Shown: positions 317 to 52,648 of the stretch, piece by piece
How positions within the stretch are numbered: the stretch's first letter is position 1
Layout of the letters: every line of letters starts with the position of its first letter
Source of the DNA: Octopus vulgaris
Lineage: Eukaryota
Assembly (NCBI GenBank): GCA_951406725.2
Contig: OX597818.1
Coordinates: 55,428,001 to 55,492,000 of the forward strand
Length of the DNA: 64,000 bases
Direction of reading: 5' to 3'
Program-made: the position numbers and the translations under genes
The notes under the pieces: model-generated
What the model was told of the DNA's origin: nothing
Seen by the model: the letters and a program-made list of their open reading frames with translations, nothing else
Databases searched by the model: none

Positions 317-492
317 CGTTTAAATATTTGTTGTGCAAGATTTTTTATGTGAAGTCGTGTGTTGAAACAGATATTGTTATATTTCGGAATGGTCATATTG
401 CCAGTTTAGCCAATAAAAACACACGCACTATATATTTGGTGTTATTTTGCTTCAGTGATATTTATTTTTTACATTAATCTTAATCTTATTTC

Positions 493-537
493 GGCCAAAG
501 TTCTTTCGTCACACTCCTGTGACCGCATCAGTGGTCC
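493..537 (-). ncRNA. Variant type-I hammerhead motif (inverted pLTR copy)
   Basis: Reverse complement of 2008-2052. Confidence 0.6.
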
Positions 538-651
538 TTTGTTTTCTTCTCACTTACTTGTGTCTCTCCTTACTAACCGTCAGCCATTTTGTATTTCTAT
601 TGTATGTCTTCATTTGCGCATGCTTATATCTCTATGTGCGTCTATATTTTG

Positions 652-1476
652 ATGGCAGACCTCGTCAGAATAATGAGAAATGTGTCACGCATGTGCGAGC
701 CTACAGAATTAAAGAGACACATACAGTATTTCATTCACCGCATGCAGTTCTCAGGTTACAGCCATAAAGAAAGGATCAGAGTATACAAAGGAGCCATGAA
801 GAAATTTGATAATATATTATGTAATGATAGGAATGGGATTTGCCCACTCTATAGGAACAAGTCATGGAACACTATAGAAAGGACAAAAAAGAAAATAAGG
901 AAGGCCAACTCTTGGTATGATAGCCATAAATACCAGAGTGTCATGTTCGTTGACACCACCCCTGGAGGTGAACTAGCGTACCGCTTTAGAAGGACCCTAG
1001 ATAAACTTAAACTAAGAATTAAGGTTGTTGAAAAGCCAGGCAACCCTATCAGATCTATAATTGGTAGAACCTATCCTTTTAGTAGAACTCTCTGTACGGA
1101 TAACTATTGCACTGTATGTAGATTTAGCCCACAAACGAACTGTAAAGCCAGAAATGTGGTCTATAGTATAAGATGTATAGAGGGAAGATGCAGTAACAAG
1201 ACAGTAACATACGTAGGGGAAACTGCAAGAAGCATTGGTGAGCGGGTGAATGAACATTGGAGACAACTCAAGGAAGGTAAAAGCTCATCGATTCTGTACC
1301 AACACGCCGAACAAGAACACGGGGGATCAATCAATAACATAGAGATTAAGATATTGTCCACACATAGAACAGATGCAACAATTAGACAAATTACAGAAGC
1401 TACACATATAATAGAAAATAAACCTAGCCTGAATAGAAAACTAGAATGGAGCAATAGCGCACACCACAACATATGA
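652..1476 (+). pseudogene. PLE polyprotein C-terminal part: RT thumb, Cys-rich linker, GIY-YIG endonuclease (Neptune/Naiad-like)
   Basis: Open frame with linker CTDNYCTVC...NC, then VVYSIRC...[16 protein letters not shown]...[13 protein letters not shown]. The first ~21 codons of ORF 589..1476 come from the inverted pLTR, and the RT core is missing. Confidence 0.9.
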
Positions 1477-1660
1477 CAATAGTGGATCCTGCAAACATAA
1501 TAAATACACAGGTAATTAAAGAAATAGAAATGAATATCTATATGTATGTATATGTGTATATATATGTATATGTATATGTGTATATGTGTGTGTATATATG
1601 TATATATATATATGTATATGTATATGTATGTATATATATATATATGTATATGTATATTCT

Positions 1661-1695
<35 letters not shown>

Positions 1696-2007
1696 CTCGA
1701 TTAGATTTATTATTATTATTACTAATATTGTTGTTATACATACATACAAGCATATGTAATGATAATAATGGGTGGATGTAAACACATGAACAAAATTAGA
1801 ACAAAAGCAACAACAACAAAAACAAAATACAAATTACAAGAATGTATATAACCAGAAGATACAAATATTACAGACATCCCCCCTCCACACTAAATAAACA
1901 TAGACGCACATAGAGATATAAGCATGCGCAAATGAAGACATACAATAGAAATACAAAATGGCTGACGGTTAGTAAGGAGAGACACAAGTAAGTGAGAAGA
2001 AAACAAA

Positions 2008-2052
2008 GGACCACTGATGCGGTCACAGGAGTGTGACGAAAGAACTTTGGCC
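2008..2052 (+). ncRNA. Variant type-I hammerhead motif in 3' pLTR
   Basis: CCA-CTGATGCG-GTCAC(aggagt)GTGAC-GAAA-GAAC-TT-TGG. Stems I, II and III are in correct topology; A9 is replaced by C. Confidence 0.6.
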
Positions 2053-2166
2053 GAAATAAGATTAAGATTAATGTAAAAAATAAATATCACTGAAGCAAAA
2101 TAACACCAAATATATAGTGCGTGTGTTTTTATTGGCTAAACTGGCAATATGACCATTCCGAAATAT

Positions 2167-2218
<52 letters not shown>

Positions 2219-4156: not shown

Positions 4157-4268
4157 CACACACACTCACACACACACATATTCTATTACATTTTTCAGCC
4201 CTTAAGTTGTTGCTATGCTGGGGCACCAATTGGCCACACATAAGGTATGCACTCTGCTTATTCACTGA

Positions 4269-4363
4269 TAGGCTGCAAATTTGCGCGGTGTGGATGACTG
4301 CTTCATGACATCCCCACCGGACGCGTTATGGGAGTCATCTCCACCGCGCTAAACCGCAGTCTA
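4269..4363 (+). ncRNA. Candidate pri-/pre-microRNA hairpin
   Basis: About 35-bp stem: taggctgc/gcagtcta, gcgcggtg/caccgcgc, gatgact/agtcatc, ttcatgac/gttatggg. 15-nt apical region, five G:U pairs (plus-strand specific), CNNC (CGAC) at 4365-4368. Unique within the window. Confidence 0.55.
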
Positions 4364-4455
4364 CCGACGAACAAGCGAAGCACATACATTATGTGTGTGG
4401 CCGCTGCTTCTGATTCATATTTGAATTTATTTCACGCCCACCACTCAACACATAT

Positions 4456-5150: not shown

Positions 5151-5767
5151 GGATCTTTTACCTTTTGACCTACAGATTTAAAACACAATTTTTTGTAATT
5201 AAACACTTTCAAACTGGTACAATGTGTCATATAAAATATCTTTTACTGTTAGTATTTTTGAGAAAAGCTTATATTTACGAAGTTATTTCACGTTAAAGTT
5301 GTCCTGTTTCGGTAATTTCAACCAATCAATGATGTGTATTCAGCTGAATAAAATTACTGCTGCTGTTTGGCAACAAGAACTTCCGGCGGTGTATATGTCG
5401 TTTGTCACTGTTATTTATGACAACCTTAACCCTACCCCCCCCCCTCCAACCCTAACCCCTTAAAGCTAAAACCAGTACAAACGCACGAACGATAAATAAC
5501 AGTGACAAACGAAATATACACCGCCGGAATTTGTTGTTGACAAACAACGGCAGTAATTTTATTCAGCTGAATACACGTCATTGATTGGTTGAAATTACCG
5601 AAATATTACAACTTTAACGTGAAATAACTTCCTAAATATAAGCTTTTCTCAAAAACGCTAAGAGTAAAAGATGTTTTATATAACACATTCTACCACTGTC
5701 TGAAGTTTGAAAGTGTTTCGTTACAAAAAATTATTTTTTAAATCTGTAGATCAAAAGGTAAAGATCC
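5151..5767. mobile_element. Long-TIR MITE (GG...CC ends, 8-bp TSD; Merlin- or Mutator-like)
   Basis: About 265-bp inverted arms (ggatcttttaccttttga / tcaaaaggtaaagatcc). Exact TSD AAGCAATG at 5143-5150 and 5768-5775. Confidence 0.9.
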
Positions 5768-7764: not shown

Positions 7765-8140
7765 TCTTTTCCACTCTAGGCACAAGGCTCGAAATTTGAG
7801 GGGAGGGGGCCAGTAGATTAGATCGACCCCAGTACGCAACTGGTACTTAATTTAGTTCTATATTTAAGAGATGAGGAATTATGTACATTATTTACATTCG
7901 ACGGATATTTGTCCTCATCTTGTTTGTTGTTAACGCAACGTTTCCCCCAAGACATCTGATGAAGGCTGGAGGGTATATCATCCGAAACGTTGTGTTAACA
8001 ACAAACAAAATGAGGAAAAATATCTGTCGAATGTAAATAATGTAAATAATGGTACTTAACTTATCTACCCCGAAAGGATGAAAGGTAAAGTCGACCGCTA
8101 AGCATATCGCCCGGCGTGCTACCGTTTCTGCTCGCCGCCT
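7765..8140 (-). mobile_element. SINE family B interrupted by a hammerhead-bearing palindromic insert
   Basis: Family B sequence at 7765-7853 resumes at 8050. tggtacttaa is duplicated at 7841-7850 and 8050-8059. Confidence 0.8.
7951..7996 (+). ncRNA. Minimal type-I hammerhead ribozyme
   Basis: GACAT-CTGATGA-A-GGCTG(gagggtatat)CATCC-GAAA-CG-TT-GTGTT. Intact core, palindromic ACGT stem III, one mismatch in stem II. Confidence 0.8.
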
Positions 8141-8870: not shown

Positions 8871-9169
8871 AAATAGGCCCTCGATTGCTAAATGTTCTGA
8901 ACCTTGTTGCAGGCATTCCAGGCTACTCCCTTGCATGTAAAAAATGTTTTTATTGCCTGCAAAATAGGAGCCAATTATTCTTGAAATCACCGACCTCCTT
9001 GAAATGTTGGAACATTTGGGGAATGGCTTTCATCTTTACTAAAAGCAAAGAGGAAATTTATAGACATTCCATCATTTCTCCCATTATTGCGCAACATAGA
9101 AGAGAAGACTTTGTTGATCATCGCTCTCATTCTGAACAGCAGGCCACATCAGATGTTATATTTTTCGAT

Positions 9170-9486
9170 GGAGGCGCAATGGCCCAGTGGTTAGGGCAGC
9201 GGACTCGCGGTCATAGGATCGCGGTTTCGATTCCCAGACCGGGCGTTGTGAGTGTTTATTGAGCGAAAACACCTAAAGCTCCACGAGGCTCCGGCAGGGG
9301 ATGGTGGTGATCCCTGCTGTACTCTTTCACCACAACTTTCTCTCACTCTTTCTTCCTGTTTCTGTTGTACCTGTATTTCAAAGGGCCGGCCTTGTCACTC
9401 TCTGTGTCACGCTGAATATCCCCGAGAACTACGTTAAGGGTACACGTGTCTGTGGAGTGTTCAACCACTTACACGTTAATTTCACG
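9170..9486 (+). mobile_element. tRNA-derived SINE family C (3'-truncated)
   Basis: ggaggcgcaatggcccagtggttagggcagc...gtttcgattccc head; near-identical to 9861-10250, 25650-26030 and 57304-57691. Confidence 0.9.
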
Positions 9487-9860
9487 TACATTTGTCCCCC
9501 CAACATCGCTTGATGTCCCCTTAACATCGTCTGTGTGTATATGTTTGTGTGTCTGTGTTTGTCCCCCGAACATCGCTTGACAACCGATGCTGGTGTGTTT
9601 ACGTCCCCGTCACTTAGCGGTTCGGCAAAAGAGACCGATAGAATAAGTACTAGGCTTACATAGAATAAGTCCCGGGGTCGAGTTGCTCGACTAAAGGCGG
9701 TGCTCCAGCATGGCCGCAGTCAAATGACTGAAACAAGTAAAAGAGAAAAGAGAAAGAGCCTAAGTTCAAATTCCGGTGGTGGTAGTACCTCCAACACCGA
9801 TCACATTGACTCTCCCTACAACAAAGGGGCGACGACACGCTAACATCACTTCATTCACAA

Positions 9861-10250
9861 TGGATGGATGGAAGCACTCCGTCGGTTACGACGACGAGGG
9901 TTCCGGTTGATCCGAATCAACGGAACAGCCTGCTCGTGAAATTAACGTGTAAGTGGTTGAACACTCTACAGACACGTGTACTCTTAACGTAGTTCTCGGG
10001 GATATTCAGCGTGACACAGAGAGTGACAAGGCCGGCCCTTTGAAATACAGGTACAACAGAAGCAGGAAGTAAGAGTGAGAGAAAGTTGTTGTGAAAGAGT
10101 ACAGCAGGGATCACCACCACCCCTGCCGGAGCCTCGTGGAGATTTAGGTGTTTTCGCTCAATAAACACTCACAACGCCCGGTCTGGGAATCGAAACCGCG
10201 ATCCTATGACCGCGAGTCCGCTGCCCTAACCACTGGGCCATTGCGCCTCC
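9861..10250 (-). mobile_element. SINE family C (full length) with TSD
   Basis: TSD acttcattcacaa at 9848-9860 and 10256-10268; short (TCCA)n tail. Confidence 0.92.
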
Positions 10251-10619
10251 ACACAACTTCATTCACAAAGAAAGATTACGAACGACAAAACATCTAATTG
10301 AGGAGTTAGGAACTTATTTTTTCTAAACAAACTGTAAAGAATGCGTGAAAATATGAAGAAAAAAAAGACCCTGATAAAAAGATAAAACCAGAACGCAGTT
10401 GTGCTTTGAATACAACATATGTAATGGTGTGTGTGTGCGTCTGTCTATATTCGTAACGCACGTGTGTGTGTCTGTGTGTTTGTGACTGTATGTGATGAAT
10501 GTGTAGTGTGTTACATGTTGCTCCAGGGGTAATTCTCTAGAGATCTCCAATCTGTTGCACCGAGAGTACTGATTATAACAAAACTTTCGTCATTCACCAA
10601 AACCTTCTCTTTCCCTCCA

Positions 10620-17902: not shown

Positions 17903-17907
<5 letters not shown>

Positions 17908-18098
17908 GAAAAACCACTATTATGTAATTCAAACAATGATAGACAGAAATTAAATCATACAGAAAAAATAAATATATTATAAAACATACAACTAGATCAC
18001 AAAAAGTACAGTTATATGTTTTATAATATTTTTATTTTTTCTTTATGATTTGATTTCTGTCTATCATTGTTTGAATTACATAATAGTGGTTTTTCTCT

Positions 18099-18100
<2 letters not shown>
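17903..18100. repeat. AT-rich foldback element in a microsatellite
   Basis: ttagagaaaaaccactattatgtaattcaaacaatgatagacagaaat is perfectly inverted at the right end; arms about 90 bp. Confidence 0.88.
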
Positions 18101-18152
<52 letters not shown>

Positions 18153-18161
18153 AAGAAAAAA

Positions 18162-18281
18162 GAGGCAGTTAGAACTTTGAATAATTATTTATGAGCGTTC
18201 GTTTAACCGAACTCTTCTTGAAGAGTTCGGTTAAACGAACGAAAGCTCTAATAACGAATTATCCAAAATCCTGACTGCCTC
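18162..18281. mobile_element. Palindromic PLE-pLTR derivative pivoting on a hammerhead core
   Basis: Arms meet at ctcttc-tt-gaagag. The right arm reads (T)TGAAGA-GTTCG(gttaaa)CGAAC-GAAA-GC-TC. Confidence 0.75.
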
Positions 18282-18509
18282 CTCTTTCTCAATATACAAT
18301 ATCTGTACACCACTCCAAACATTCTATACATACATACATACAAAAATACCCTGTTGTTGATGTTAAAATTCCAATGAAAGAGCCTTGGATCTAGATTATA
18401 AATTGGTTCTTTCTCTATTGGCAAGAAATCTTGAAATAAACTTAATGACATCCATCCATCCATCCATACATACATACACACACACACATATATATATATA
18501 CTATATATG

Positions 18510-24578: not shown

Positions 24579-24985
24579 GGCGGCGAGCTGGCAGAAACGT
24601 TAGCACGCCGGGCGAAATGCTTAGCGGTATTTCGTCTGCTGTTATGTTCTGAGTTCAAATTTCGCCGAGATCGACTTTGCCTTTCATCCTTTCGGGGTCG
24701 ATTAAATAAGTACCAGTTACGCACTGTGGTCGATGTAATCGATTTAATCTGTTTGTCTGTCCTTGCCTGTCCTCTCTGTGTGTAGCCCCTTGTGGGTAGT
24801 AAAGAAATAAGTATTTCGTCTGCCGTTACGTTCTGAGTTCAAATTCCGCCGAGGTCGACTTTGCCTTTCATTCTTTCGGGGTCGAAAAATTAAGTACCAG
24901 TTACGCACTGGAGTCGACTTAATCCGTTTGTCTGTCCTTGTCTGTCTCCTATATGTTTACCCCCTTATGGGCAATACAGAAATAG
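24579..24985 (+). mobile_element. SINE family B dimer inserted into a SINE A remnant
   Basis: TSD ggaaactgtacag on both sides. Confidence 0.9.
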
Positions 24986-25018
24986 GAAACTGTACAGAAG
25001 CCTGTCGTATGTATTTTA

Positions 25019-25105
<87 letters not shown>

Positions 25106-25357
25106 GTCTTGGTGTCAATATGATCGACTAAACGCTTCAAAGGGACATCCCAACTTGGTCGTAATCGAGTAATTGAATCCATTAAAAGAATTTTACAAAT
25201 ATTTAACTACAGACAAGCAAATGTGACCCCGCAATGCTGTATATATAAATAGCGTTTACGTTTGTTTACGGCATGTATACATGCGCACACTGGATACTGC
25301 ACACTCAACATATTTTATTCTGTAGTTGTAATGTATGTAATATATATTTATAAATGA

Positions 25358-25438
<81 letters not shown>

Positions 25439-25649
25439 CACACTCATACACACACATCAAAATACACATGCATACGTATACACTCGCATACACACACTAT
25501 TACACACAGATATGTGTGTGTGCGTGTATCGTCTGAACATCTGTTGCCTCCTGTTTAACCTGAGTATTTACTCACCACACATATCTCTACTAGAGGTATA
25601 TCATAGAGAGGAGAAATATTATACATGGACGTTTCTATATTTGTTAAGT

Positions 25650-26030
25650 GGAGGCGCAATGGTCCAGTGGTTAGGGCAGCGGACTCGCGGTTGTAGGATC
25701 GCAGTTACGAATCTCAGACCGGGCGCTGTGGGTGTTTATTGAGCGAAAACACCTAAAAGCTCCACGAGGCTCCTGCAGGGATGGTGGTGATCCCTGCTGT
25801 ACTCTTTCACACAACTTTCTCTCACTCTTTCTTCCTGTTTCTGTTGTACCTGTATTCACAAAGGTCCAGCCTTGTCACACTCTGTGTCACACTGAATTTC
25901 CCCTGAGAACTACGTTAAGAGTACACGTGTCTGTGGAGTGCTCAGCCACTTGCACGTTAATTTCACGAGGAGGATGTTCCGTTGATCAGATCAACTTGAA
26001 CCCTCGTCGTCGTAACCGACGGAGTGCCAC
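25650..26030 (+). mobile_element. SINE family C
   Basis: Full-length match to family C. Confidence 0.9.
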
Positions 26031-26109
26031 GATATTTGTGAAGTTCGCATGTCGTGAAGAGGCAAGAATCTTTGCGTTTTGAGTAAAACTCTTCAGCGAG
26101 GAAATAACG

Positions 26110-26480
26110 GCTGCAGGTATAGCTGTGTGGTTAAGAAACTAGAATTGTAACCGCGTAATTTCAGGTTCGGTCTCACTACGCGGCACTTTGGACAAATGTC
26201 TTCTACTGCAGCGCAGGGCCGATCATTGCCTTGTGAGTGAATTTGGTAGACACAAACTTCGTGGAAACCCATCGTGTGTGTGTGTGTATCTGTGTGTGTA
26301 CCTTCCCTGCTTGACAGCAGATTTTGGTTTGTTTATGTTCTCGTAACTTGTTGGTTCAGTAAAAGAGATCGATAGAATACTTACCAGACTTTAAGAAAAG
26401 TACTGTGGTCGATTCGTTCGATTAAGCTTTTCAAGGTGGTGCCCCAGCATGGCCGTGGTCCCATGAATAAAATAAGTAAG
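26110..26480 (+). mobile_element. Diverged SINE family A
   Basis: Head and tail motifs recognisable. Confidence 0.78.
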
Positions 26481-27094
26481 ACAGAGACAACATATTGATA
26501 ATACAGTCATAAGTACGACGGACACAACATTTTATTGCCTCTACCATCTTGCTTTCCTTGAAACGTCAGTATTCTCGATGGCAGAATATTTTTCGTCCTG
26601 ATAAAGTGCTTTTACACGAAACATCAAGCTTCTCGTTTTACTACGCCGCGAAAATTTATTTGAATTTACGGACTTCGTTAAATATTATTTACTAACACAG
26701 ATCATTAATCGTTTCATTGGGCTTTGGTTTTCATTTGCTGTAGACTGTGAGTACTTGACTTAGCGAGTTAATCCGTTCTTAAGTATCGCTCATAAATCAC
26801 TAACTTCTAAACACACACATACACACACATTAAAATACATAAGACAGGCTTCTGTAAAGTTTCCTATTTCTTTATTGCCCACAAGGGCTAAACATAGAGG
26901 AGACAGACAAGGACAGACAAAGGGATTAAGTCGATTACATCGACCCTAGTGCGTAACTGGTACTTAATTTATCGACCCCGAAGGGATGAAAGGCAAAGTC
27001 GACCACTGCCACCACAAAGGGTAACACTCTAAGTTGATGCTTCGTTATCTTTCGCCTGAGTTCAAATTCCGCCGTGTGGTGTGTGTGTGACCGC

Positions 27095-30682: not shown

Positions 30683-31270
30683 GGATCTCTTCAGTTTGGC
30701 TCACAGATTTGAAAATTATATTTTTAAACTAAACTGTTTGAAACTTCGTATACTGGTGTAATTTCTCACGTTGAACACGGTTTACTTTCAACATTTTTGA
30801 CAAAATTTCGTATTTTAGAAGTTATTTCGTTTTCAGTTGTTGTATTTGGGTAATTTTAACTGATCAACGACGTGTATTCAGCTGAAGAAACCTACTGCTG
30901 TTTGCGATTGTGGAAGAGCAAAAACTTCCGGGTCATCAAGCGTGTAATATGCAACACAGGCAGTAAACAAAAATAAAATGAACAGAATGGTGAAAATATC
31001 ACATGCAGTAAGTAAAAATATCCATGCGTAAGCCAAAAAACACGTCCAAGCTAAAGAACATATCTAATAATCCACACGTGATTGAAAAATACATTTAGTA
31101 GAGATGACCCGGAAGTTGTTGCTCTTCGATTACTATCGCATACAGCAGTAGGTTTCTTCAGCTGAATACACGTCGTTGATTGGTTAAAATTACCCAAATA
31201 CGAGAACTTTAACACGAAATAACTTCTAAAATACGAAATTTTGTCAAAAGTGTTGAAAGTAAATGTGTTT
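30683..31270. mobile_element. Long-TIR MITE related to 5151-5767, right end truncated
   Basis: Begins ggatct and shares tgtattcagctgaa...actgctg...acttccgg. Inverted arms at ~30780-30937 and 31103-31265. Confidence 0.82.
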
Positions 31271-42114: not shown

Positions 42115-42691
42115 AGGCGTGGCTATGTGGTAAGTAGCTTGCTTACCAAGCACATTGTTTCGGGTTTAGTCCCACTGCGTGGTACCTTGGGCATGTGTCT
42201 TCTACTATAGCCTCGGATCGACCAAAGCCTTGTGAGTGGATTTGGTAGATGGAAACTGAAAAAAGCCCGTCGCATATATATGTGTGTGTGTGTGTCTTTT
42301 TTATTCTTTTATTTGTCTCAGTCAATTGACTGCGGCCATGCTGGAGCACCGCCTTTAGTCGAACAAATCGACACCAGAACTTATTCTTTGTAAGCCTAGT
42401 ACTTATTCTATCGGTCTCTTTGCCGAACCGCGAAGTTAAGAGGACGTAAACACACCAATGTCGGTTGTCAAGCGATGGTGGGGAACAAACACAGATACAG
42501 ACACACACACACACACACATGTATATATATACGACGGGCTTCTTTCGTTTTCCATCTACCAAATCCACTCACAAGGCTTTGGTCGGCCCGACGTATAGTA
42601 GAAGACACTTGCCCAATGTATCACACAGTGGGACTGGACTCGGAATCATGTGGTTGGTAAGCAAGCTACTTACCACACAGCCACGCCTTCA

Positions 42692-42747
<56 letters not shown>

Positions 42748-42810
42748 ATACTTGCATACATACATGTAATGTATATGAGTATATGCATATCTATACGCAT
42801 GTAAGTAGGT

Positions 42811-42891
<81 letters not shown>

Positions 42892-43125
42892 GCAGACAGA
42901 TAGATAGATAGATAGATAGACAGAGAGACTGACAGACTAATATTTAGATAGATAGATAGATAGATAGACACGTGCTTAAGAAGTTTGGTTTGTGTGTGGT
43001 GGTTCGGCAAAGGGAACTGATAGAATAAGTACTAGGCTTACAAAGTATAAGTCCTGGAGTCGATTTGATCGGCTAAAGGCGGTGCTCCAGCATGACCACA
43101 GTCAATTGGCTGAAACAAGTAAAAG
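42115..43125. mobile_element. SINE A cluster: plus 5' part, full minus copy (42297-42690), plus 3' part
   Basis: Family A matches on both strands, separated by (TA)n/(GATA)n. Confidence 0.82.
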
Positions 43126-44440
43126 ACTGTGTGTGTACACATACACATGTAGTTGTCTCCACCCGCACCCCCAACAACCTACAAGCCATCCAGCATATGT
43201 TTTTTAGATCAACAACACCCTCCTGGATACCATTCTACCGAATGACCAACATCGTCAGTGACCAAAACCCAGTGACCACCATTCCTTCTTCCAGACTCCA
43301 ACCACTCAACACCACTCCCCAACCTCACCATCCATTAAAAATAACTTGTTAATTCCCCAAAATTAATAACAAACAAGTATGTTTTCCCAATCACCACCTT
43401 CGTTTCTTCCCCCACCATCCACACTTCCACCACAGCCAGACCACATAATCGTTTTCGATTAGAATTTGTTCCCATCCCGGACTATTACTGTCTCCAGATA
43501 CATTTATACCAATTAACCCCCCCCCCCCACACACACACCCTAATGTACCCATACACACCCTTAATAGAATTAAATTCACAAACAAACAAGTGTGTTTATT
43601 TAATTTCTCTGCCACCCTACCAAAACAAAAATCATTCCAACGGCAGTAGACATCTTACAAATTCTATCTAACTTTATTTTTGTCTTTTTGTCGGCGGCCA
43701 TAAACCGTATGTCCAAAATGCACTTTATATATCGTAACTGCATCCTCTTAATCAACCAGTATATACTCTTAATCTATCACATACGCCCACATAAATGTAT
43801 ACGACAAAAAGCAGAATAGAAAGAAAGAAAAACTCATAAAAAGACGTGATACTAGTGTACTTAATGCCATGTGCGACAAATAAATAAATAAATAAATACA
43901 TCAATAAGTAGATAAATAAAATTTAATTATAACTTCCTCGTTAGAGAACGTAAACAAAAGCCTAGCGGCAATTCGGCAATTATTAGTGGTGCTCTTAGAA
44001 AGGGGGAGATAATTTCAAGAGAGGAATTACTGATAAGATTTGTGTGTGAGTGAGTGTGTCTGTGTGGGGGGGGTTAAGTCTATGTGTGTGTGTGTGTGCG
44101 TGCAGGTGTATGTATGTGTGTATGTGAGTGTGTGTGTGTAAGTCTATGTGTGTGCGTGCGTGCACGTGTGTGAGTGTATGCGTGCGTGTATGTATATATA
44201 TATGTGTGTGTGTGTATGTATGTATATGCGTGTGTATGTGTATATGTGTGTGTGTGTGTGTGTGTTTACTGCATTCAGTTAATTAAGCTTTAACTTAATT
44301 GTCCAAACTGATACTTCTAACTCAATTGATTTATATCCCTTAGCTCATTTTAGTTGGGAATTTCCGTTTATAATGTAATATAATATAATATTGTCTTGTA
44401 TGATATCATATATATACATGCATATGTGTGTTTATGTATG

Positions 44441-44486
<46 letters not shown>

Positions 44487-44637
44487 AGTGAGAATTTACA
44501 AAAAATAACAAAAGACGAAGAGGGGTGTGTAAACAACAAGTAGATATATTAGTTTAACGCTCGGGAAGTGAGAAAGTATTTTACGTTTCGAGCCTACGCT
44601 CTTCGGCAGAAAGGAACACAGAAATAAACAGGGAAAG
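44487..44637 (-). mobile_element. pLTR-like short repeat with A6C-variant hammerhead (44578-44613)
   Basis: Minus strand TTT-CTGCCGA-A-GAGC(gtag)GCTC-GAAA-CG-TA-AAA; homologous to 47370-47520. Confidence 0.7.
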
Positions 44638-44642
44638 ACCAA

Positions 44643-45041
44643 ACATTCACGGTATCTAAATGCAATGATAGCCGATGTGGCACATGCCAATTCATACATA
44701 CCGGTCAATATATAAACACAAAAACCGGGAAAATATTCACAAACGCGAATATGAACTGCAAAAGCAGAAATTTAATTTACTGCATCAAATGCCCAAATTG
44801 TGAAGAAATATATGTAGGTCAGACGGGAAACGCACTATTAGAACGCTCACGTGTACACCGGCAACAGATTAGAGACCCAGAGGTCCGTCAGATACCTTTG
44901 AGTAACCACCTAGCAACATGTGGTCGGAAAATATATATAATATTTCCATTCTACAAATTACACAGCCCAAGTGAAATCGAGAGGAAAATCAGAGAAAAGA
45001 ATTTTATTGATAAATTCGAACCCAAGCTAAATAAGCAATAA
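44643..45041 (+). pseudogene. PLE Cys-rich linker and GIY-YIG endonuclease (5'-truncated, Neptune-like)
   Basis: In-frame KCNDSRCGTC...MNCKSRNLIYCIKCPNCEEIYVGQTG...R..VH...REKNFIDKFEPKLN. Confidence 0.9.
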
Positions 45042-45535
45042 TAATAATACTTAGAGGTATTACTTCCACTGCTACGACCATGACCACTAACAACAACAAC
45101 AATACTAAAGGTGATCAAGACGAAGATAGCAGGAAAATTATCTTATTTAGGGTTAAAAGTTCTATTGCCACCTCCATCACCACTAGCAACAATAATTAAG
45201 GTGCTGACAACGATGATGATGACAATTGAAATATAAAAATATAAAAATCTCTGACAAAGGATATTTACAACATTTCTAAAAATAACCCAACAATTGCTGC
45301 TTCGGCCAGGGTCAAGATACAGGACTCTTGACCTGTCCAACAAAGCGTGATGCCTAAACCAATCAGCTCAACCAACCAATCAGCTTAAGTAATTGAGTGA
45401 TACTACACACTGATTGGTCAGAATACAGTTTGCAAAACCTAGCACTCTGGAGCCTACCCAGCTGTATTTATAGCACAGAATCACTCATCTTGCTACAGTC
45501 AAAAATTGTGAAGCATGACTGTCAACACTACTACA

Positions 45536-45580
45536 TGAACCCGAAGATTGCAGAATTCAATGCATGAAAGTACTAGTTCA
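45536..45580 (+). ncRNA. Hammerhead motif (U4C variant) in the 3' pLTR of that PLE
   Basis: TGAAC-CCGAAGA-T-TGCA(gaattcaa)TGCA-T-GAAA-GTAC-TA-GTTCA; palindromic AGTACT stem III. Confidence 0.75.
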
Positions 45581-45742
45581 ATCAGAATGAATATTTAACA
45601 TTCTACTATTTCATTTTATTTTATTCAATTATAATATATTATCTTATAATATATCATTATAAGATTGTAAATAAAACGTGAAAATCAGACAAGGTTGGAA
45701 TTCTTTTTATTAATATATTCTTCTATACACAATCACACACAC

Positions 45743-45808: not shown

Positions 45809-45949
45809 TTATTTTTCTTAACGAAGAATATTATTGATAGTGACCTCAAAATTTTGGCTAGTTTAGCCATCATCGGACTGTAGTCCGTCGATGGCTTAAC
45901 TGTTGGAAATTTCGAAGTCACTGTCAATAATATTCTTGTTTAAAAATAA
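45809..45949. mobile_element. Old palindromic element pivoting on a decayed hammerhead
   Basis: Arms 45824-45879 / 45882-45937. Minus strand reads CCGATGA-T-GGCTA(aac)TAGCC-AAAA. Confidence 0.65.
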
Positions 45950-46020
45950 CAATTTGTACTCTACGAAAGTATAGAGTAACCCATCAGATTAAAGTAAAAT
46001 TGTTTTTATCATAACTTAAC

Positions 46021-50701: not shown

Positions 50702-50769
50702 ATATGCAGCTCCTTACTTTTATCTCGAGGGACTACAGCTATTTGTGGCAATATGTACACACATACATG

Positions 50770-50846
<77 letters not shown>

Positions 50847-50859
50847 GTGTATGTACGTA

Positions 50860-50907
<48 letters not shown>

Positions 50908-50973
50908 TGTATGTGTGTACACATTGCCACAAGTAACTGTAGTCCCTCGAGATAAAAGTAAGGAGCTGCATAT
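50702..50973. repeat. 68-bp inverted repeat around (TA)n tracts
   Basis: atatgcagctccttacttttatctcgagggactacag... at 50702-50769 is inverted at 50906-50973. Confidence 0.9.
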
Positions 50974-51558: not shown

Positions 51559-52110
51559 TATAGCATTTATAAATCTGATTCTCTTCGCTATTATTGTGCT
51601 TTTGCGAATCGCTTTTCCCAGAAAAGCTATTTTCGGTATAACAAGAAAAATATTCTAGTTTCCTACCCTCTCGTTTCCTGCTAGTTAATTTTAATTCACA
51701 TTTTTAAACTTGCTAACATAGATTCGAGCACATATGCAAAGTCTTCTACCCAGCAAATTCTTCGTATTTTGCGTTTTTGATTTCTCATCTTACAGTTTCA
51801 AACGTTCGGCCCGCAAGCCCAGTCTATCCGATCCTTGACTCACTTTTATTCCAAAAGGCTTTATTATTAAGAGTGTTGTGGCTCGTTTGAACCATTGTGA
51901 TAAAGAAGCAAAATTACCAAATAGTGAAGTCGGAGGGCTTCTTACACAGCGCAGAGGAAAAGGTTAAAAAACCTTCATATATTTCAGGCACAAAGACTCA
52001 TCATCTTTATTTGTTATATTCTAAAGTATAAAATATTTTGAATGACAACAATGCATTGTAATTCAAACAATGGACTATAATAACTGTTGTAATTTAATTA
52101 TCCATAGTCT

Positions 52111-52149
52111 GATATGATATTTCGGAATAAAATTCCTTCTTCAGATATC
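52111..52149 (-). ncRNA. Minimal type-I hammerhead ribozyme
   Basis: GATAT-CTGAAGA-A-GGAAT(ttt)ATTCC-GAAA-TA-TC-ATATC. Confidence 0.82.
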
Positions 52150-52164
52150 CATCAATTCCTAGGA

Positions 52165-52202
52165 ATATCTGAAGAAGGAATTTTATTCCGAAATATCATA
52201 TC
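52165..52202 (+). ncRNA. Minimal type-I hammerhead ribozyme
   Basis: ATAT-CTGAAGA-A-GGAAT(ttt)ATTCC-GAAA-TA-TC-ATAT. Confidence 0.82.
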
Positions 52203-52648
52203 AGACTATGGATAATTAAATTACAACAGTTATTATAGTCCACTGTTTGTATTATAGTGCATTGTTGTGTCATTCAAAATATTTTATTCTTTACCAACAA
52301 TACACAATGCTTCAAGCGAACTACAATACTCTTCTTGTTATATTCTGTAAAATATAAATCGTTTGCAGTCGAATCGGTGCACCTCAACACATCTTTCGTT
52401 ATCTCAATTAATGAAGATAAAGCTTATGTTTCCATTTACTGAAAGATGTGACTTATTTCACCTTTTCTTTGTGTATACATGCCAAGCCAAACGAAAGTAT
52501 TCTTTTCGCACGTGTTCGTCCGATCTGATTCTTGAGGTATGAATGATATTAAAAGGCATTGCTCCTAAAACTCTACTAACTTTCAATCAAGCATTGACTT
52601 TCTCCAGAGCTGAATGTATTTAAGATGCGTTTCTTAATAAAACTGCAT

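Follow-up and report, generated by a model that had tools for sequence, protein, structure and literature searches.

A near-palindrome with two opposed hammerhead motifs in Octopus vulgaris as the probable stump of a Penelope-like retrotransposon insertion

Within a 64,000-nucleotide stretch of Octopus vulgaris DNA (hereafter the window), two identical hammerhead motifs lie on opposite strands around the middle of a long palindrome. The unit to which they belong, 52023-52334, is probably the dead-on-arrival stump of one Penelope-like element (PLE) retrotransposon insertion, with ribozymes that are predicted to be inert in their present place. It likely represents an already published type of by-product, here in a form in which nothing of the ORF is left and the entire insertion is a 312-bp near-palindrome. 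An ORF-bearing copy of the parent family was found neither in the window nor in metagenome or viral collections, so the PLE identity rests on the anatomy of the unit. A single locus neatly illustrates an insertion by-product that is already known, and carries little weight alone. As a class, such stubs record both reverse transcriptase start sites, the nick stagger and the junction within 300 bp. Counted across a genome, they could tell twin priming from self-priming, a question still open for PLEs, and reveal whether, cleavage aside, the hammerhead contributes structurally to insertion.

Anatomy of the unit

The 312 bases of the unit comprise an inverted arm, a 16-nt centre, a direct arm and a one-sided extension, as outlined in Table 1. 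The left arm (52022-52148) aligns with the right arm (52165-52293) over 129 columns with 5 substitutions (left/right 52027/52288, 52056/52257, 52058/52255, 52063/52250 and 52070/52243) and one 2-nt indel (52269-70). Folded as RNA, 52020-52295 reaches -177.9 kcal/mol (z = -32), a value equalled by none of 200 shuffles, with a stem of about 128 bp. An earlier note on this DNA had recognised the palindrome and its long hairpin, putting the latter at ~120 bp, but had drawn the edges at 52028..52287 and had missed the tail and the 12-bp repeat. This direct repeat flanks the unit on both sides. Its 12-mer has no occurrence in the 64-kb window other than those at 52011 and 52335, and over the space searched the chance of such a repeat is about 4e-4. 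About 41 extra bases separate the right arm from the right copy of the repeat and have no counterpart on the left.

Table 1 Features of the unit 52023-52334 and junction offsets of the hammerhead-bearing head-to-head units in the window
Feature	Position	Strand	Remark
Left 12-bp direct repeat, likely target-site duplication	52011..52022	+	last base common to arm end
Inverted 5'-truncated copy of the pLTR end, without tail	52023..52148	-	outer end mirrors the family's first 3' end (52293)
Minimal type I hammerhead	52111..52149	-	C3 at 52144; predicted cleavage between 52116 and 52115
16-nt centre	52149..52164	+	upstream part of the element itself; supplies the 5' strand of distal stem I
Native perfect 12-bp palindrome	52155..52166	.	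directly at the junction, overlaps stem I
Native minimal type I hammerhead	52157..52212	+	core CUGAAGA from 52169; predicted cleavage after 52197
Direct arm, 3' part of the pLTR, very abundant repeat family	52165..52293	+
One-sided 'tail' of ~41 nt	52294..52334	+	stops at the family's second 3' end
Right copy of the 12-bp direct repeat	52335..52346	+
Head-to-head unit	371-2174		offsets from C3, inverted arm inner end / direct copy 5' end: -118 / -1364
Head-to-head unit	7878-8050		offsets, likewise: +28 / -11
Head-to-head unit	18147-18296		offsets, likewise: +3 / -1
Head-to-head unit	45809-45952		offsets, likewise: about -4 / -6
Head-to-head unit	52023-52334		offsets, likewise: -4 / -20

This arrangement carries the features of an insertion by an EN+ PLE. 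A type I hammerhead sits in the terminal repeat, and a head-to-head inverted, 5'-truncated copy stands at the 5' end, the orientation being given by the upstream continuation in sequencing contigs. The tail, for which 30-40 bp at one end only would be expected, measures 41 nt, and the short target duplication and AT-rich or (TA)n target are represented by the 12-bp repeat and by a (TA)n-rich consensus behind 52332. Published PLE insertions have lost their 5' part. Many carry an inverted copy there, likewise 5'-truncated, together with a tail of 30-40 bp at one end or the other, which is ascribed to endonuclease resolution (PMC8557442). Inverted pLTRs with a 31-bp tail and 8-10-bp duplications have also been described, their junction palindromes being interpreted as self-priming (PMC3846280). 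Like these units and those of PMC11167929, the present one combines a hammerhead-bearing 5'-truncated pLTR and its head-to-head inverted copy with a one-sided tail of ~40 nt, a short duplication, an AT-rich target and a junction palindrome; it differs from them in its extreme truncation. The PLE parentage proposed in the earlier note is thus supported by the insertion anatomy. Its suggestion of an undescribed element class is not supported, as the anatomy has been published (PMC8557442, PMC3846280) and dual hammerheads on opposite strands were noted already in 2014 (PMC4209133).

The left flank (51960-52005) is itself a moderately repeated piece and contains a degenerate minus-strand hammerhead-like motif. 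In three of four sequencing runs, 52005 is joined to 52303 by one single-copy contig, with 35 other letters between them in the two runs where these are shown.

Hammerhead motifs

A strict minimal-hammerhead scan of the 64 kb returned exactly two matches, +52169 and -52144, and 40 block shuffles gave no match at all, which bears out the claim of two intact-core hammerheads on opposite strands. The cores are identical and separated by 24 nt. On both strands the order is stem I, CUGAAGA, an unpaired A, a 5-bp stem II closed by G-C, GAAA, UA, UC and the cleavage site. In the plus-strand motif, stem I is built of 6 distal pairs, an internal loop and 4 proximal pairs, and the core is followed by the unpaired A, the 5-bp stem II, GAAA and a palindromic minimal stem III. 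The minus-strand motif has 5 bp in its proximal stem I, the fifth pair being supplied by the junction. The minimal hammerheads of PLEs have a core of the form CUGANGA...GAAA...UH, an unpaired base after A9, a G10.1-C11.1 pair, a palindromic minimal stem III and a stem I of 4-5 bp, and all of these are found here; the intact core, the unpaired base before stem II, the G10.1-C11.1 pair, the 4-5-bp proximal stem I and stem III likewise match the minimal type I motifs of PMC4209133 and PMC6765202, the latter a review. The motif is a predicted ribozyme, and its 5-bp stem II is shorter than the 7-8 bp of the Schistosoma motifs. The opposite-strand dual motifs of PMC4209133 lie 100-700 bp apart, in contrast to only 24 nt between the cores here. 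In the same work a single minimal motif did not cleave, and dimers cleaved weakly.

For the direct arm taken alone, the ribozyme fold is computed at -7.4 kcal/mol and the free minimum at -8.4 kcal/mol, and a constrained fold places 52157-52162 in the distal part of stem I. In the minimum-energy fold, the catalytic CUGA (52168-52172) pairs with a downstream complement at 52201-52205. Lying 1 kcal/mol below the ribozyme fold, this pairing could possibly act as a built-in off state. The isolated stem III dimer duplex has an energy of +0.2 kcal/mol. No Rfam hammerhead model was present among the 150 of 157 matches listed or among all five matches of a second scan; a match to MIR5512 (66 bits, vs a gathering score of 139) reflects only the hairpin shape. 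A pattern made from the hammerhead region had no matches in metagenome and viral contig collections.

The parent repeat family

The 1061-bp stretch 51570-52630 was compared at 80% likeness with the contigs of 4 of 24 runs (organisms A, B, C and F), all from DNA or unlabelled runs. Each run yielded 1454-2012 matching contigs, and the summed depth over arms and tail, which is not a copy number, was 5e4-5e5 (X1, X3, X12) vs 32-82 on the unique flanks. The arm sequence is a very abundant repeat family. Nine listed rows of loose ends, with 18-34 contigs each and spread across all four runs, lie before 52148, 52151 or 52159, and these contigs continue into one common upstream consensus (24 rows listed, beside 873 further rows). 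Because this continuation is shared by all four runs, the 16-nt centre can be read as native sequence of the element and the plus arm as the direct copy, and the folding of the lone arm, with 52157-52162 in stem I, agrees with a native centre. The 16-bp spacer of the earlier note (52149-52164) is therefore right in length but is not foreign, being part of stem I. Two other readings of the centre were rejected: a fold-back that has no spacer, pivots on the middle of the 12-bp palindrome and has lost 8 nt from one arm, as the centre is native family sequence, and a native minus arm, with its 5-bp stem I, as the upstream continuation shows the plus arm to be direct. Members of the family differ in the length of the stem II loop and in the cleavage base, variation of the sort expected if the motif is a maintained one.

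The family has two recurrent 3' ends, 39 nt apart. Loose ends behind 52293 are listed for three of the four runs (23-26 contigs each), and loose ends behind 52332 are found in all four (48-71 contigs each) and lead into the (TA)n-rich consensus. The inverted arm extends to the mirror position of the inner end and no further. This bears on the possibility that a plain truncated PLE copy was inverted and duplicated later by replication template switching, a process that does create hairpins (PMC8794818), or that the inner perfection is an artefact of assembly polishing. The centre is bridged by no contig listed for the locus, so the perfection of the inner arms is that of the assembly; yet the left junction is bridged by one contig (X1 record 2, 51817-52077, 1 difference), both arms lie inside the target duplication, and the end of the inverted arm is a 3' end common to the family. 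Polishing, moreover, could account for perfection and not for a palindrome, and we regard this alternative as very improbable.

Contigs, although they show junctions poorly, also bear on the idea that the whole palindrome is amplified and mobile as one non-autonomous unit of the MITE or retrozyme kind, always with the same centre. As the reference is palindromic, a skip from left arm to right arm was read as a head-to-head junction elsewhere in the genome. Among the best 15 of 31 joints, each is represented by one contig per run at about single-copy depth and at differing places, and the readable head-to-head joints (52098-52216, 52143-52248, 52099-52147 and 52150-52209) are unlike each other and unlike this locus. 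The sides of these joints are short (24-40 letters where given), the other joints are ambiguous, and an amplified unit with the same centre would yield no joint; the listed joints are unique and single-copy, and copies with an identical centre are not counted by contigs. For a fixed unit speak the high copy number of the arm sequence and one other contig that crosses the centre with a similar pivot (X1 record 3, 52101-52233, 19 substitutions and 9 gap letters; 1 of 32 pieces listed), and the contigs could miss more. Nevertheless, each listed row has 18-34 contigs that carry the native centre on into upstream sequence, the two ends do not match as the symmetric terminal inverted repeats of a MITE would, there being ~41 extra bases on the right only, the readable joints among the best 15 of 31 differ from one another, and the same-strand tandem hammerheads of non-LTR retrozymes are absent. 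Amplification as a fixed unit is accordingly improbable, and the check proposed earlier, shared spacer vs unique spacers, leans towards independent inversions, with the one similar pivot as a reservation.

Like non-LTR retrozymes (bioRxiv 10.64898/2026.07.22.740005), the unit is short, non-coding, PLE-related and equipped with a type I hammerhead, but its motifs lie on opposite strands and form no cis dimer, unlike the same-strand tandem repeats with at least two hammerheads of those elements. Palindromic MITE-like repeats such as Xenopus Harbinger (PMC5625713) resemble it in folding on themselves over 200-300 bp and in being an ADAR substrate if transcribed. In the present unit, by contrast, the two ends are unlike, the arm forms the terminal part of a longer repeat and the centres vary, and it is not a DNA transposon with terminal inverted repeats.

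No empty-site allele was seen among the best 15 of 31 joints, the left flank being barely covered in X12. A joint from 52290 to 52026, with 10 letters between, looks tail-to-tail and is carried by one contig each in X1 and X3.

Proposed mechanism of insertion

The anatomy and the family ends together suggest a scheme of two nicks and two cDNAs. The reverse transcriptase/GIY-YIG protein of the PLE would nick both strands of an AT-rich target, 12 bp apart, and each nick would prime a cDNA on uncleaved element RNA, one at the inner start site (52293) and one at the outer (about 52334). Both cDNAs would stop after only 130-190 nt, near the ribozyme, and could be joined via 1-3 nt of microhomology beside the native 12-bp palindrome. 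The outcome would be a tailless inverted arm, a tailed direct arm and a target duplication. Later the arms would have decayed, with the inner 78 bp likely re-homogenised by arm-to-arm template switching. The two arms reach 33 and 49 nt beyond the cleavage site in the 5' direction, from which an uncleaved template follows. Work on another PLE places the tail between two reverse transcription start sites, with both target strands cut and extended, and describes the PLE protein as a predicted dimer, ribozyme cleavage as unneeded and unprocessed RNA as the main template (PMC11167929).

The same object could be produced by snap-back self-priming, in which one cDNA folds back beside the native palindrome and is copied outward, and resolution of the hairpin by the endonuclease at the inner 3' site then lets only one arm keep the tail. 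Such a route is a variant within the PLE-stub identity and holds about a third of its probability. Self-priming has been argued from palindromes at inverted junctions (PMC3846280) and the tail has been attributed to endonuclease resolution (PMC8557442); here, too, the junction falls within 6 nt of the native 12-bp palindrome, and a 3-nt fold-back register fits. The route needs an extra step, however, for the inverted arm to end exactly at the family's recurrent inner 3' end, which corresponds to an end mapped to a reverse transcription start site in another PLE (PMC11167929), and the junction does not coincide with the middle of the palindrome, the easiest place for a snap-back. We therefore consider self-priming somewhat unlikely. 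Twin priming is preferred by a modest factor because it explains directly why each arm starts at its own family end, for which snap-back needs an extra cut. In a search of the PLE literature, with subscription papers outside its scope, 'twin priming' was named for PLEs nowhere in the texts as available.

The perfect inner arms

All six differences between the arms fall within the outer 51 columns, and the inner 78 bp are identical, as the earlier note had seen. Such an exclusion from the inner 78 of about 130 columns has p of about 0.004, and a perfect inner zone is therefore not predicted by neutral decay alone. The outer differences look private to one arm when set against the family majority among the rows listed (52058 and 52063 in the left arm, 52243 in the right). 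In the inner zone both arms carry the same minority bases, for example at 52099/52214, again among the rows listed, with 36 further rows. Age can be gauged from a contig of organism F that begins within the tail, at 52307, and continues into the right flank with 20 substitutions in 324 bases (6% flank divergence), although its 28 letters on the element side are below the 31-letter threshold. This suggests that the insertion may predate the split from organism F. An old insertion with a perfect core would likely owe it to homogenisation between the arms, and template switching can perfect hairpin arms without selection (PMC8794818; PMC8604942). When this was checked, about 4 shared private changes were expected and at most about 2 candidates were found (p = 0.2).

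Alternatively, the inner stem could be held perfect by selection, the unit being kept as the self-silencing or siRNA-producing module that the earlier note proposed. The perfection of the inner 78 bp despite a seemingly old insertion would fit this idea, and so would the antisense small RNAs against PLEs documented in rotifers (PMC3846280) and the heavy editing of palindromic repeats, and of Penelope in lizard, the octopus being an extreme editor (PMC5625713). Template switching, however, yields perfect arms without selection; the inner-perfect gradient is seen in only two of the six inverted units of the window (the other is 18147, p = 0.02); and with so many copies of the family a single locus would add little. 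The 150 longest of 249 open frames, a set that would miss short exons, contained no recognisable host exon, and the sole frame among them over the Pfam curated cut-off is a GIY-YIG fragment (44628-45038, E = 1.4e-6). Selection for such a module is thus quite improbable.

Read-through transcripts

On both strands the antisense arm would be transcribed before the ribozyme, as had been pointed out earlier together with the sequestration of the ribozyme in the hairpin. The calculation agrees: the probability of stem II in the full unit is ~1e-15 to 3e-15 on either strand, and it is likewise ~1e-15 to 3e-15 in a plus transcript that ends just after stem I. Each strand has one motif, and the locus offers no same-strand dimer partner. 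Both ribozymes are predicted to be dead in place. With the antisense preceding the ribozyme on each strand, the read-through product would be a hairpin of ~128 bp and not a cleaving ribozyme, and such a hairpin would suit ADAR or Dicer. The long stable hairpin typical of an siRNA or miRNA hairpin locus is present, and stubs of this kind are candidates for the origin of the long dsRNA that undergoes heavy editing in octopus.

Junction position and other inverted units in the window

Five hammerhead-bearing head-to-head units were compared for the position of their junction (Table 1). Both of its ends lie within 30 nt of the core in four, and the exception is 371-2174. The pivot at the ribozyme that the earlier note had seen as shared with 7884, 18162 and 45809 stands to that extent, but is not established as an architecture, as the count is drawn from a biased sample: units were recognised by their hammerhead, and short stubs must pivot near the 3' end, from which the ribozyme of the 52023-52334 family is only 125-165 nt away. 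Contig junctions of this family are spread over 52148-52248. The strict scanner was too stringent for the degenerate motifs at 2014, 7956, 18218, 45541 and 45885, which were read by eye. The palindromes 17903-18100 and 4235-4397 have no intact core to fix the register and were left out of the count, as were further inverted pairs, among them 9169-10251, 42115-43126 and 24853-27004, which resemble oppositely oriented repeats of the SINE type.

A pivot of PLE insertions that is linked to the ribozyme is plausible. Going further, the ribozyme might be a preferred hinge for PLE insertion, scattering self-repairing hairpins of ~130 bp through the octopus genome and feeding both ADAR editing and small-RNA silencing; in this extended form we hold the idea to be unlikely. 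Short inverted repeats in or beside the hammerhead would let two cDNAs of the same polarity, made from opposite nicks, pair with each other. If so, truncation and inversion would cluster at the ribozyme, hairpins would be numerous and silencing would target the parent family. The PLE literature that was searched (subscription papers again outside the scope) held no measurement of junction position relative to the ribozyme.

Six further regions of the window with hammerheads or palindromes were aligned locally with the arm, and only low-scoring AT-rich matches appeared; the six regions are treated as putatively different families. The longer example, 371-2174, is a 5'-truncated PLE with a GIY-YIG frame (577-1476) between inverted 279-bp hammerhead-bearing repeats that differ by one base. 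In each of its hammerhead cores, +2014 and -531, position 9 is C where A would be expected. The frame itself has a weak GIY-YIG match (E = 6e-4); over 66% of the query it shares 96% identity with an RT-domain containing protein of Octopus vulgaris, which in turn has a weak match to Pfam RVT_1 (E = 0.004). Confirmed relatives of the 577-1473 protein numbered zero among 355 and 16 candidate stretches from metagenome and viral collections. The ORFs 577-1476 and 44628-45038 both belong to families other than that of 52023-52334.

A second fold-back stub, 7851-8049, has a 10-bp target duplication (7841-7850 and 8050-8059) and 27 extra bases on its inverted side, that is, on the opposite side from 52023-52334. 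It contains one whole hammerhead, +7956, and with its duplication (7841-8059) it presumably sits inside a SINE-like repeat. The units 18147-18296 and 45809-45952 are decayed double-hammerhead palindromes of other families, with centres of 2-4 nt just 5' of the core, and at neither was a target duplication found. In 44480-45700 the GIY-YIG fragment 44628-45038 is accompanied by variant hammerheads at -44609 and +45541, which BLAST does not match to each other.

Further inverted structures in the window include the 198-bp palindrome at 17903-18100, which is without an intact core and has a 16-nt centre that looks like a hammerhead's 3' half. A match of 16 nt links this palindrome to the arm of 52023-52334. 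A MITE-like element at 5151-5767 has terminal inverted repeats of ~270 bp and an 8-bp target duplication, with related arms at 30781-31263. The decayed palindrome at 4235-4397 has a 33-nt centre and no hammerhead, and the palindrome at 50702-50973 is centred on a (TA)n tract.
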